This document shows positions 9,361 to 14,981 of a DNA stretch of 64,000 nucleotides, piece after piece. The notes beneath the pieces were generated by a model. The model saw nothing but the letters and a program-made list of their open reading frames with translations, did no database searches and had not been told where the DNA came from. The first letter of the stretch is position 1. The number at the start of each line of letters is the position of its first letter. The DNA lies in NCBI GenBank assembly GCA_016219905.1, contig JACRKA010000351.1:2622-66621 (forward strand), written 5' to 3'. The stretch is from Verrucomicrobiota bacterium (GTDB lineage Bacteria; Verrucomicrobiota; Verrucomicrobiia; CAIQCK01). The translations under genes and the position numbers were made by a program.

Positions 9361-10383
9361 ATGAATGAAAAAGTGGCGCACTTGATGGACCGCGCGGTGA
9401 TCCGTTTCGCGACCAACATGATGCGCGACGGTCACAGCGATCACGAGAACCATCCCGAGCAGAAGGAGCTTTGGCAGGCCTACCCGCGCACGCTCGGCTC
9501 GTGGGAGACGCTCTTCGCGCTGCCGGAGCCGCTGACAGATGTGGAGCAATGCCTCAGCCGGCCGCTCTGGCTCGGCCCGGCCACGCACCGGTCGTTTCAT
9601 TTTCCCAGCCCGGTCACGACGCCGTGGGAGATCAACAACCGCGTCGGGGGCGATTACTTCGAGGGTCACGGACCCGACGCGCGCCAGCGGCCCACGGTGC
9701 TGCTGTTGCACGGCTGGAACACAAACATCGCCTACTATCTTAATTACTGCCGCACCGGCCATCGCTTCGCGCGGCGCGGGATCAACTGCGCGTTGATGCA
9801 CCTGCCCTACCACGTGGACCGCAAGCCGAACCGCTGGAAGGAATACTTCCTGACCGAAAACATCGCGCACACTGTGCAGGCCGTGCAGCAGGCGGTCATC
9901 GAGGCGCGCGTCGTGTTGCGCTGGCTGCGCGCGCGGCAGTCCGGCCCCGTCGGCATCTGGGGCATCAGCCTCGGCGGCTGGATCGCGAGCATCGTCGCCT
10001 GTGTGGAGAAGGAGCTGGATTTTGCCGTGCTGATGACGCCCGCGGTCCGGCTCGACCGCCAGGTGTGGGAACTCAAGTTCCTCGCCGCGATGAAGGAGAG
10101 CCTGCTTGCCCAAGGCGCGACGCGCGAGGACATCATCCGCATCGCGGAGCCGCTGCTGCCGAAGTTCCACAAGCCGCTCATCGAACGCGAACGCATCCTG
10201 ATCCTCGAGGCGCTCTACGACCAGTTCCTCGGGCCGGAGACGATTGACGAGCTTTGGCAGGCGTGGGACAAGCCGCCCATCGAACGTTATCGGCACGGCC
10301 ACATCAGCATCCTGATGGATGCCCGCGTCCTGGGCCGCACGGCGGATTTCATCAAGACCATGACGCGCCGCACGGAGCCTTGA
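9361..10383 (+). CDS. Alpha/beta-fold hydrolase of unknown specificity.
   Basis: HGW oxyanion-hole region and nucleophile elbow GISLGG, with a predicted Ser-Asp-His arrangement. First gene of a plus-strand cassette together with the ABC transporter. Confidence 0.7.
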   Translation: MNEKVAHLMDRAVIRFATNMMRDGHSDHENHPEQKELWQAYPRTLGSWETLFALPEPLTDVEQCLSRPLWLGPATHRSFHFPSPVTTPWEINNRVGGDYFEGHGPDARQRPTVLLLHGWNTNIAYYLNYCRTGHRFARRGINCALMHLPYHVDRKPNRWKEYFLTENIAHTVQAVQQAVIEARVVLRWLRARQSGPVGIWGISLGGWIASIVACVEKELDFAVLMTPAVRLDRQVWELKFLAAMKESLLAQGATREDIIRIAEPLLPKFHKPLIERERILILEALYDQFLGPETIDELWQAWDKPPIERYRHGHISILMDARVLGRTADFIKTMTRRTEP

Positions 10384-10391
10384 ACCACCCC

Positions 10392-11144
10392 ATGGTCATC
10401 GAAGTCCGCGATCTGGTCAAAGTCTATGACGGCACCACGGCCGTGGACCGGCTGAGCTTCACCGCCGCGCGCGGCGAAATCCTCGGCCTGCTCGGCCCCA
10501 ACGGCGCCGGCAAGACCACCGCCATCCAGACGTTGCTCGGCATCATCGAGCCGACCGCCGGCTCCATCCGGGTGTTCGGCCAGGACATCCGGACGCACCG
10601 CCAGAGCATCCTCCAGCGCACCAATTTCTCCAGCGCCTACGTCAGCCTGCCGCAAAACCTGTGCGTCATGGACAATCTCCGCGTCTTCGCCGGCATCTAT
10701 TGCGTGGACAACTGGCGCGAGAAGGCGACGGGGCTGCTGCGGCTGTTCGAGATAGACCGGCTGGCCACGCGCAAGACCGGCCAGCTCAGCAGCGGCGAGA
10801 GCACGCGGTTGCATCTCTGCAAGGCGCTGCTGAACGACCCCGAGTTGCTCCTGCTCGACGAGCCGACTGCCTCGCTCGACCCGGACATCGCCGACAAGGT
10901 CCGCAAGCTGTTGCGCCGCATCCAGCGCGAGCGAGGCATCACCATCCTCTACACGTCGCACAACATGCGGGAGATCGAGGAGATCTGCGACCGCGTCATT
11001 TTCCTGCACCACGGCCGCAAGATCGCCGAAGGCCCGCCCCGCGAGGTCATCGCCCGCTTCAACCAGCAGTCGCTGGAGCAGGTCTTCATCCGCATCGCGC
11101 GGGACGGGGAGTTGCAAGAGGCAGAAAAGAAGCCGGCTTCATGA
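10392..11144 (+). CDS. ABC transporter ATP-binding protein (ABC-2 / drug-exporter type).
   Basis: Walker A GPNGAGKTT, signature LSSGE, Walker B LLLLDEPT, H-loop TSHNM. Start chosen at MVIEVRDL (nt 10392); the longer ORF-track N-terminus overlaps the upstream gene. Confidence 0.9.
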   Translation: MVIEVRDLVKVYDGTTAVDRLSFTAARGEILGLLGPNGAGKTTAIQTLLGIIEPTAGSIRVFGQDIRTHRQSILQRTNFSSAYVSLPQNLCVMDNLRVFAGIYCVDNWREKATGLLRLFEIDRLATRKTGQLSSGESTRLHLCKALLNDPELLLLDEPTASLDPDIADKVRKLLRRIQRERGITILYTSHNMREIEEICDRVIFLHHGRKIAEGPPREVIARFNQQSLEQVFIRIARDGELQEAEKKPAS

Positions 11145-14132: not shown

Positions 14133-14285
14133 AGCACGGAATGTGTCAAAACGAAGGACTCACGCCCTGCATACGAGCGGCCAGACGCTGCAACTTAACA
14201 CCACCGGGATGATTTAGAACAGACAAACTTTCTGCCATGTCTGCTATTTTGGGCGGGCGCCGCCTTCCGGCCCGTTCGCCTTTCA

Positions 14286-14981
14286 TCAACCCTCGTTGAA
14301 ACACAGCGTCGCGTGCCACTTCTTGTAAAGCTCCACCGTGGCGCGGCAGTCCCCCAGGCAGTAGCGTGCGATCTCCTTCTGGCGGCCCTCGGCGAAAAGC
14401 TTGTTCATGTCGAGGCCGGTGATGCCGCCCGCCTTCGGACTTTCGATGCCGAACGTCCTGCAATAATAATCGAGATTGAACTTCCGCGTCGCGCCATAGA
14501 ACGAGAGCTGCTCCAGCAGGTCCACCATGTCCTTCGCGTATCGGTTGCCCATGAGATTGCGCGAGGGCCGCACGCCGAGGATCGCGCTGCGCAGCATCAC
14601 AAACGGGCAATCGAACGTGCGCCCGTTGAACGTCACCAGCCGGTCGTAGCGCTTCACCACGTCCCAGAACCCGGCGAGGATGTCTTCCTCCATGCCGGAG
14701 GAAAACTCGACCAGGCCATCCTCGCTCGCCCACTCCTCCGCGTCGTCGGATTGGTAGAGCACCTTCCCCTTCCCCGTGTCCACGTTGAGCATGCCGATGG
14801 CGATCACCTGTGCAGTCGGCGCGGTCAGGTTGAGTTGCTGGATGACCTCGGCGCGTTTGGCCGCCCGCGCCTCCCCGGTCGGCTCGCGCTCGGCATAGCG
14901 CATCAGGTATTCCTTCTGCGCCTCGTCCAGGGAATCAAAGTCACACCCGGCCGTCTCGATGTCGAAGAGGAGAGTAGTCAT
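14286..14981 (-). CDS. RNase H-like 3'-5' exonuclease (PolB-exonuclease-domain-related, DEDD type).
   Basis: Exo I motif LLFDIETAG. Downstream acidic and Tyr residues consistent with the DEDDy family. Confidence 0.7.
   Translation of the reverse strand: MTTLLFDIETAGCDFDSLDEAQKEYLMRYAEREPTGEARAAKRAEVIQQLNLTAPTAQVIAIGMLNVDTGKGKVLYQSDDAEEWASEDGLVEFSSGMEEDILAGFWDVVKRYDRLVTFNGRTFDCPFVMLRSAILGVRPSRNLMGNRYAKDMVDLLEQLSFYGATRKFNLDYYCRTFGIESPKAGGITGLDMNKLFAEGRQKEIARYCLGDCRATVELYKKWHATLCFNEG

Follow-up and report, generated by a model that had tools for sequence, protein, structure and literature searches.

In the 64,000-nucleotide stretch of Verrucomicrobiota bacterium DNA analysed here (GenBank assembly GCA_016219905.1, contig JACRKA010000351.1, positions 2,622 to 66,621 of the forward strand; hereafter the window), positions 9361–14981 encode an alpha/beta hydrolase, an ATP-binding cassette (ABC) exporter of the ABC-2 type and a small secreted Cys/Lys-rich protein on the plus strand, which face a B12-binding radical S-adenosylmethionine (SAM) enzyme and a 3'-5' exonuclease on the minus strand. 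An earlier note on this DNA had treated the hydrolase, exporter, small-protein and radical SAM genes as one system defined by its neighbourhood. With moderate confidence, we read the interval as independent transcription units lying side by side, not as one system, and the small protein as a periplasmic thiol-rich metal- or redox-binding protein that has become detached from its regulator.

The small gene and its flanking signals occupy the following positions in the window:

11960–12005, plus strand: clade-conserved upstream element (11960–11989) and ribosome-binding site (AGGA, 12002–12005) of the small gene
12013–12285, plus strand: gene of the small secreted Cys/Lys-rich protein, recognized by its ribosome-binding site, Sec-type N terminus and homologues
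12320–12361, plus strand: intrinsic terminator (14-bp GC-rich stem and T-run) that separates the small gene from the radical SAM gene convergent with it

The open reading frame (ORF) has 91 codons including the stop, giving a protein of 90 residues, and is preceded by the AGGA ribosome-binding site 7 nt 5' of its ATG. Judged from sequence, the N terminus (residues 1–25) is of the Sec type, with an MKK..R start, a hydrophobic core and a cleavage site between VYA and AP. The mature protein has 65 residues, with 8 Cys, 18 Lys, a net charge of +8 and a Lys/Glu-rich tail; Cys makes up 12% of the protein, which is devoid of aromatic residues. The cysteines are spaced CC-x12-CxxC-x4-CC-x13-CxxxxC. 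Of the earlier description, the Sec signal, the eight cysteines and the Lys/Glu tail hold, and two details need correction: the length, given as 91 residues, and the last cysteine pair, given as CxxC.

The terminator consists of a hairpin at 12320–12351 followed by TTTGTTTTT. The 76-nt terminator stretch folds at −42.1 kcal/mol (z = −6.8), and the hairpin is kept through compensatory changes in two of the loci used for comparison (designated by L numbers), L001 and L007, so that the strong intrinsic terminator noted before is substantiated. On the 5' side of the gene, the element TGAAATC-N17-TCCTAC (11960–11989; consensus of its 3' half, TYCTAC) has the same placement in the window and in L001-type and L007-type loci, though the remaining spacer has diverged; TGAAATC-N17-TYCTAC is probably the small gene's own promoter. 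Comparison of the window, L001 and L007 genes gave ratios of nonsynonymous to synonymous substitution rates (dN/dS) of 0.13–0.24. The small gene of the window clade is under purifying selection, which indicates that its product works without an adjacent anti-sigma factor.

A word-indexed search with the window small protein returned 6 homologues, 54–79% identical to it, and a profile of these homologues, compared with 1.84 billion representatives, recovered 31 clusters (50% identity, E ≤ 1e-3) of proteins that are all 51–126 residues long. The family alignment has a signal peptide ending A-x-A, then G-E-CC-x12-CxxC-x4-CC-K-x13-17-CxxC and AKKK; the cleavage context, A-x-A directly followed by G-E-CC, is conserved family-wide, and two similar [CC…AKxCxKC] units can be made out by eye. 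Exactly 8 Cys are found in 65 of 76 unique sequences and the full CC..CxxC..CC..CxxC pattern in 58 of the 76, with CxxxxC as the last pair only in the window clade. The composition of 8 Cys and approximately 25% Lys is characteristic of the family, whose mature peptides have 47–65 residues and a net charge that is typically +4 to +9. A His or Asp stands two residues ahead of the second CC in 44 of 73 members, and the members that lack C45 (n = 4) all carry a His within 3 residues.

Pfam contains no match for the window small protein or for any of the 34 aligned members, and NCBIfam none for the window protein; a PDB profile search found no relative, and Foldseek with the small-protein model found no structural match in the PDB. 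The family is not placed among the metallothioneins, since none of the 34 members has a Pfam metallothionein match. Profile searches, which the earlier note had proposed for this protein, thus gave no Pfam or NCBIfam match but uncovered an unannotated family of 31 clusters. AlphaFold models reached a predicted local distance difference test score (pLDDT) of 54 with 7 sequences and 63 with 34 sequences; core residues 30–60, at a pLDDT of approximately 78–81, are helical. The core of the protein is thus predicted to be helical, in a model too uncertain for judging the geometry of the cysteines.

Loci of the family elsewhere were retrieved with a degenerate DNA pattern on conserved Cys, Lys and Gly codons, which yielded 19 genome and 39 metagenome loci. 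These 58 loci outside the window form 35 clusters at 85% identity, or 36 with the window. Nearly all of the genome loci are from Verrucomicrobiota (Pedosphaera, Limisphaerales, Verrucomicrobiales). L036 and L037 are labelled as Bifidobacterium/Bifidobacteriaceae metagenome-assembled genomes, with the L036 genes approximately 97% identical to a Verrucomicrobia contig (L021), and L020 is labelled Methylacidiphilum, at approximately 91–95% identity to the window's high-GC clade; all three are probably mis-binned or mislabelled. The family appears to be undescribed and, going by these sequences, known so far only from Verrucomicrobiota.

Neighbours within 1.5 kb, scored by tblastn with the window proteins and recurrent neighbours, recur in the 36 clusters as follows:

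12 of 36 clusters: extracytoplasmic function (ECF) sigma factor (Sigma70_r2 and r4_2) and/or a 243-residue protein, most with both
7 of 36 clusters: prepilin-type N_methyl/DUF1559 gene and a secreted 279-residue protein
6 of 36 clusters: AhpC/Redoxin-fold proteins that in NCBIfam match ResA/TlpA/DsbE-type periplasmic thiol oxidoreductases best
3 of 36 clusters, window clade only: window-type ABC-2 exporter
2 of 36 clusters: window-type radical SAM gene

Approximately 11 clusters have no recognisable partner. The 243-residue protein spans the membrane with one helix, between a cytoplasmic N terminus and a periplasmic domain in which two Cys are conserved; its matches to the anti-sigma-E model NF010501 and to DUF3379 are sub-threshold, a PDB sequence search found no relative of it, and it looks like an anti-sigma factor. 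The linked genes occur in three arrangements: sigma and anti-sigma followed by the small gene, with or without a redoxin in between; the small gene, with or without a redoxin ahead of it, followed by sigma and anti-sigma; and the small gene divergent from sigma and anti-sigma. Linkage that is retained while gene order is shuffled is the usual signature of a functional partnership. In L021, L022, L031 and L032, the sigma/anti-sigma/small-gene module is immediately preceded by genes for MacA/MacB-type pumps. A literature search for Verrucomicrobia ECF modules with Cys-rich partners found nothing relevant.

The pilin-like clusters, which include L023 (3630–4469), L025, L037, L052, L059, L073 and L079, have the small gene 3' of the prepilin-type gene and of one or two copies of the 279-residue protein. 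This secreted protein carries DHGH and GHIHG motifs and has a faint choice-of-anchor-M match, and the setting may be a second, metal-related context of the family.

The sigma genes share an upstream element, GGAATAA-N15-CTTCCTA. In the form GGAATAR-N15-CTY-N3-M it occurs at 9 sites in 41 loci, 7 of them upstream of sigma genes and the other 2 in L026 and L027, ahead of small genes that are divergent. GGAATA[AT] is also found 5' of the small gene in L024/L062, L029 and L044/L055/L075, which makes 5 clusters in all against approximately 0.2 expected from its background frequency of 5.7e-5 per nt. On this excess, the promoter sequences place the small gene of the motif-bearing genomes under the adjacent ECF sigma factor, either directly or as part of an operon.

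Two types of leader were seen upstream of small genes. The first, ATTTGCGCG-N4-5-CGCGC, is found approximately 85–90 nt ahead of the small genes, irrespective of which gene precedes them, and is followed by a second hairpin whose stem varies between lineages. It was located at these positions:

L021, 6253–6336: ATTTGCGCG…CGCGC leader
L022, 2342–2434: the same leader
L023, 4504–4593: the same leader
L025, 2686–2597, minus strand: the same leader

It is also present in L031, L032, L034, L036, L037, L053, L058 and L061. As an ECF promoter this leader was rejected, because it is found only 5' of small genes and not of sigma genes; Rfam has no match for it, and RNAalifold support for its structure, from a sequence-based alignment, is weak. 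The second type, in L029, L044, L055, L071, L075 and L077, lies approximately 40–95 nt upstream of the small genes and is made up of GGAATA[AT] (or TGAATAA), N15-16, (G)TCACA and a conserved hairpin, CCCGCAC-atgtc-GTGCGGG, ahead of the small gene. At the loci with this leader, the small gene heads an operon of small gene, sigma and anti-sigma.

Gene calls in the window (approximately 65% GC) were made from an ORF listing with Pfam and NCBIfam scans. Every gene named in the earlier note is present where it had been placed, including the three plus-strand genes for the hydrolase, the ABC ATPase and the ABC-2 permease, and the facing class-B radical SAM enzyme and RNase-H-like exonuclease have the domains expected of them:

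9361–10383, plus strand: cytoplasmic ABHD18-like alpha/beta hydrolase, 340 residues (PF09752 ABHD18, 43.8 bits; Abhydrolase_6)
10392–11144, plus strand: ABC transporter ATPase, DrrA/NodI-like (PF00005, 101 bits)
11141–11938, plus strand: ABC-2 type permease (PF01061, 30.6 bits, cutoff 26.9)
12402–14132 as ORF, likely 12402–14111, minus strand: B12-binding radical SAM enzyme (PF02310 and PF04055)
14286–14981, minus strand: PolB-exonuclease-like 3'-5' exonuclease (PF10108, 70.6 bits, cutoff 24; RNase_H_2 PF13482, 42.3 bits, cutoff 22)

The hydrolase has a GISLG nucleophile motif and no signal peptide, and scores 91 bits with the NCBIfam RcgR-like model, short of the cutoff of 182. Its gene is the first of a three-gene operon and is separated by 8 nt from that of the ABC ATPase, which scores 192 bits with TIGR01188 DrrA (cutoff 312) and 129 bits with a lantibiotic-protection ABC model (cutoff 310), below both cutoffs. 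An ATGA overlap of stop and start, read directly in the sequence, translationally couples the permease to the ATPase. With an ABC_tran ATPase and an ABC2_membrane permease encoded together, the pair is an ABC-2 exporter; the permease stays below the cutoff of the DrrB model (28.8 bits against 223). On the opposite strand, the exonuclease exceeds the gathering scores of both PF10108 and PF13482 and belongs to a conserved backbone adjoining the nuo operon; past it lie genes for an IscA/ErpA-type protein, a glyoxalase-fold protein and nuoN/M. In the arrangement that we propose, the interval would hold a clade-specific operon of the cytoplasmic hydrolase and a DrrAB-like ABC-2 exporter, a monocistronic small gene with its own upstream element, ribosome-binding site and strong terminator, and, on the opposite strand, a widely conserved stand-alone B12-radical SAM gene with the backbone exonuclease.

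Comparison with syntenic loci shows that the space between permease and exonuclease is a variable slot in a conserved backbone. In L001–L005 and L020, whose ABC genes are 90–95% identical to those of the window, the hydrolase, ABC, ABC-2 and small genes are followed by the opposite-strand exonuclease gene, and the L001-type loci have neither the radical SAM nor the IscA gene. L007-type loci have the ABC-2 and small genes followed by the opposite-strand radical SAM gene. L014–L016 (hydrolase 73% identical) have DUF1189, hydrolase, ABC and ABC-2 genes, with exonuclease, glyoxalase and nuoN genes on the opposite strand; here a cupin and a short-chain dehydrogenase gene fill the slot in place of both the small gene and the radical SAM gene. 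Hydrolase and ABC genes stay linked only in relatives of 73–90% identity, and a functional module of hydrolase and ABC-2 exporter was rejected at greater depth: hydrolase homologues of 35–41% identity lie beside trpD or prfC, with no adjoining ABC genes. Distant members of the small-protein family never adjoin the hydrolase, the ABC-2 exporter, the exonuclease or a window-type radical SAM gene. The cassette therefore did not pass the comparison with relatives that the earlier note had proposed as its check, as the neighbourhood does not reach beyond very close relatives and its slot differs among the L001, L007 and L014 types.

Several further differences were seen around the slot. A 66-residue fragment (77% identity) of a sulfite/nitrite reductase gene lies at 1059–1256 (minus strand) in L001, whereas the gene is intact at 7619–9259 in the window; the window's IscA/ErpA-like gene (15058–15435, minus strand) is missing from the L001 and L014 relatives; and the glyoxalase gene of L001 is apparently broken by a frame shift. 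These three are scars of rearrangement around the slot. In L038, a 35%-identical hydrolase homologue (5001–6005) and a PolB-exonuclease-like gene (10349–11005) lie approximately 4 kb apart with wholly different genes between them, a hint that the hydrolase…exonuclease backbone predates what the slot now contains.

The radical SAM protein is a member of the class-B (cobalamin-binding) superfamily, with a PF02310 B12-binding domain (48.6 bits, cutoff 32.1), a PF04055 domain (31.6 bits, cutoff 29.5) and a CPMGCNFC motif. Its true start is likely to be the ATG at 14111, giving 569 residues, because its homologues measure 565–570 residues. More than 8,000 homologues were found, the top 120 of which are 67–77% identical and come from Verrucomicrobiota, Planctomycetota/Phycisphaerae and Terriglobia (Acidobacteriota). 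Among characterised families, the enzyme scores best with HpnJ (60 bits, cutoff 578), and a PDB sequence search found no relative of it; a literature search on this radical SAM family found nothing relevant. Five other contexts of the gene (L011, L012, L013, L042 and L043) have no neighbour in common with the window and contain neither a small Cys-rich gene nor the exonuclease gene. The radical SAM gene stands on its own, independent of and unrelated to the small gene beside it. The L013 copy shares 17 nt with the start of an OpuA-like ABC transporter gene and lies 3' of EgtB/EgtD-like genes, and a WbsX-like glycosyltransferase gene lies within 5 kb of the copies in L011, L042 and L043. The only radical SAM adjacency of the family found besides the window type is in L045, in which the family member (1097–1465, minus strand) is divergent from a different B12-binding radical SAM gene (1584–2869, plus strand), whose product is 24% identical to that of the window. 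By our own estimate this adjacency is coincidental and within chance, given how common radical SAM genes are.

The structure of the gene, its export signal and family, the statistics of its neighbourhood and the promoter motif are observations; the metal or redox chemistry of the small protein and its regulation in this genome are inferred. Export by Sec and cleavage between VYA and AP would release a 65-residue, helical and very basic mature protein with four Cys pairs. The usual home of the family elsewhere would be a module of ECF sigma factor, single-pass putative anti-sigma factor and small protein, often adjoined by TlpA/ResA-like oxidoreductases. The two [CC…CxxC] units may form periplasmic thiolate sites for a thiophilic metal or metalloid, or may cycle between thiol and disulfide; the small protein would then serve as a buffer induced by stress, or else partner the anti-sigma factor in sensing, and in the window it would represent an ECF sigma regulon member that has become detached. 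Indirect backing for thiolate chemistry comes from the CC and CxxC motifs, the TlpA-like neighbours, the His/Asp near the second CC and the His of the C45-less members, and these last two features hint at metal binding. The metal-chaperone idea of the earlier note is thus plausible for the small protein alone, from its sigma/anti-sigma and TlpA-like neighbours elsewhere, and falls away for the cassette.

Several observations weigh against this interpretation. An even number of Cys in an oxidising periplasm would equally fit four structural disulfides, and in the window clade the second CC is preceded by K instead of H or D and the last pair is CxxxxC. The structural model, at a pLDDT of 63, has neither structural nor sequence relatives, and metal binding by the small protein is a prediction from sequence and context. 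The link to sigma factors is not universal, considering the 7 clusters with the pilin-like and 279-residue proteins and the approximately 11 partnerless clusters. In the window itself, tblastn of the 64 kb found no homolog of the ECF sigma factor, the anti-sigma factor or the redoxin, and the region upstream of the small gene gave no match to the ECF promoter motif at up to 3 mismatches. Aligned to that motif, it reads TGAAATC-N16-TTCCTA, which departs from the motif at 5 of 14 positions and agrees only in the −10-like half (TTCCTA). Control of the window copy by an ECF sigma factor is thus conjectural.

The earlier note had likened the neighbourhood to systems for ribosomally synthesized and post-translationally modified peptides (RiPPs). 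Such a RiPP or bacteriocin cassette, in which the B12-radical SAM enzyme modifies the Cys-rich peptide and the ABC-2 transporter exports it or gives resistance, would account for the physical adjacency of the genes in the window and L007-type loci, for the family member beside a different B12-binding radical SAM gene in L045 and for the sub-threshold lantibiotic-protection match of the ATPase. It is nevertheless very improbable. A cytoplasmic precursor with a leader or follower, usually encoded in one operon with its maturase, would be expected, and the apparent Sec signal of the small protein takes the peptide out of the cytoplasm, the site of radical SAM action; the two genes are convergent, with the strong terminator between them; and the doubts voiced in the earlier note itself, over the Sec signal and the convergent orientation, were correct. 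The radical SAM gene is missing from the syntenic L001 and L014 loci, its homologues are 68–77% identical across three phyla, its five other contexts have no small Cys-rich neighbour, and the window type adjoins only 2 of the 36 small-protein clusters, 33 of which have no ABC-2 exporter nearby. Precursor and maturase are not co-conserved across genomes, and the RiPP reading is therefore not supported. The RiPP-maturase models also score far below their cutoffs on the enzyme, TIGR03975 at 20.2 bits (cutoff 281.9) and NF050148 ApyD at 21.1 bits (cutoff 750). It is quite unlikely, too, that the small protein is a secreted, cationic, disulfide-stabilised antimicrobial or signalling peptide, with the ABC-2 transporter here and MacB-type pumps elsewhere serving export or self-protection. 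The size of 47–65 residues, 8 Cys and charge of +4 to +9 make a defensin-like composition, and pumps do lie upstream, of the MacA/MacB type in the four loci named above and of the ABC-2 type in the window clade, but they are found in a minority of clusters and the two types are unrelated. ABC-2 exporters move substrates from the cytoplasm or inner leaflet, whereas the small peptide leaves by Sec. The loci showed neither an immunity gene nor a variable pairing of toxin and immunity, and the tight linkage to ECF sigma/anti-sigma and TlpA-like genes fits envelope stress better than a weapon.

Closer to the interpretation preferred here is a small protein that acts mainly as a periplasmic co-sensor, binding the periplasmic domain of the anti-sigma factor in the manner of CnrX or RseB and not acting as a buffer, with the window copy a decaying or re-purposed paralogue. 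The sigma, anti-sigma and small genes stay linked in three orders, and the two conserved Cys of the anti-sigma periplasmic domain would suit such a partner; the binding is proposed from gene context, and the family also occurs away from sigma genes (in the 7 pilin-like contexts, the window clade and others), with the window clade under purifying selection in spite of having no adjacent anti-sigma gene. We regard this alternative as rather unlikely. It is hardly credible that the small ORF is spurious and arose by chance in GC-rich intergenic DNA: short, with a low-complexity tail and no database family, it nonetheless has a ribosome-binding site, a terminator, a conserved Cys pattern, 6 close homologues, 31 profile clusters and a dN/dS of 0.13–0.24, and the gene called in the earlier note is genuine. 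A stronger form of the periplasmic metal- or redox-binding interpretation would make the small protein the founding member of a Verrucomicrobiota-specific, Sec-exported 'mini-metallothionein', with two tetrathiolate [CC…CxxC] sites on a Lys-rich helical scaffold, its own ECF sigma/anti-sigma pair and TlpA-like reduction. This proposal is tentative and, in our judgement, rather unlikely; if true, the family would use thiolates in the periplasm to buffer or sense copper, or else other thiophilic metals or metalloids, and would have no counterpart among described bacterial families.

The cassette as first framed is ordinary, an adjacency that is not accompanied by co-conservation, and it carries a caution: a small Cys-rich ORF beside a radical SAM gene should not be taken for a RiPP locus before genomes are compared. 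What holds up, on a modest scale, is an unannotated exported family of Verrucomicrobiota that is repeatedly tied to ECF sigma/anti-sigma genes with a promoter motif and to periplasmic thiol reductases. If the family binds metals or senses oxidants, it would open a way into the envelope stress signalling of a phylum that has been little studied. The adjoining stand-alone B12-radical SAM enzyme is conspicuous in its own right, being approximately 70% identical across Verrucomicrobiota, Planctomycetota and Acidobacteriota and outside any characterised subfamily.

Among known systems, the RiPP class-B radical SAM loci (TIGR03975 rSAM_ocin_1, ApyD, polytheonamide PoyB/C, and SCIFF-type precursors) resemble the interval in bringing together a Cys-rich ORF, a B12-radical SAM enzyme and an ABC transporter; the window differs from them in having a Sec signal instead of a leader, a convergent arrangement with a terminator, no co-conservation and a stand-alone radical SAM enzyme far below the cutoffs. 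The coupled ATPase and ABC-2 permease are like DrrAB, YadGH and NodIJ, with DrrA, NodI and DrrB as best NCBIfam matches, although all of these matches lie below the equivalog cutoffs and the ABHD18-like hydrolase partner is clade-specific.

The CnrYXH/NccYXH modules of Cupriavidus metallidurans combine an ECF sigma factor with a single-pass anti-sigma factor and a small sensor of metals in the periplasm; CnrX is anchored in the membrane and has His, Glu and Met as its ligands. The likeness to them lies in a small exported protein near an ECF sigma factor and/or a single-pass anti-sigma-like protein in 12 of the 36 clusters, co-transcribed or under the same promoter motif. The differences are that the sequences are not similar, that the small protein is Cys/Lys-rich and cleaved by signal peptidase, and that the window copy has no sigma or anti-sigma gene nearby, unlike those 12 clusters.

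Small thiolate binders include the metallothioneins SmtA/BmtA and MymT, the Csp copper-storage proteins and Cox17, of which Csp1 and Cox17 work in an extracytoplasmic compartment, and TlpA reductases serve copper chaperones. The small protein resembles these binders in being small, Cys-rich, aromatic-free, helical and extracytoplasmic, with CC and CxxC motifs, and its redoxin neighbours resemble TlpA. It differs in having only 8 Cys, Sec export, a strongly basic character and no homology detected in Pfam, NCBIfam or PDB. Homology to Cox17 was considered and rejected (BLASTP against the human Cox17 sequence, E = 1.5). Without being a member of either group, the small-protein family appears, by analogy, nearest to the ECF three-component modules in function and to the thiolate binders in composition.

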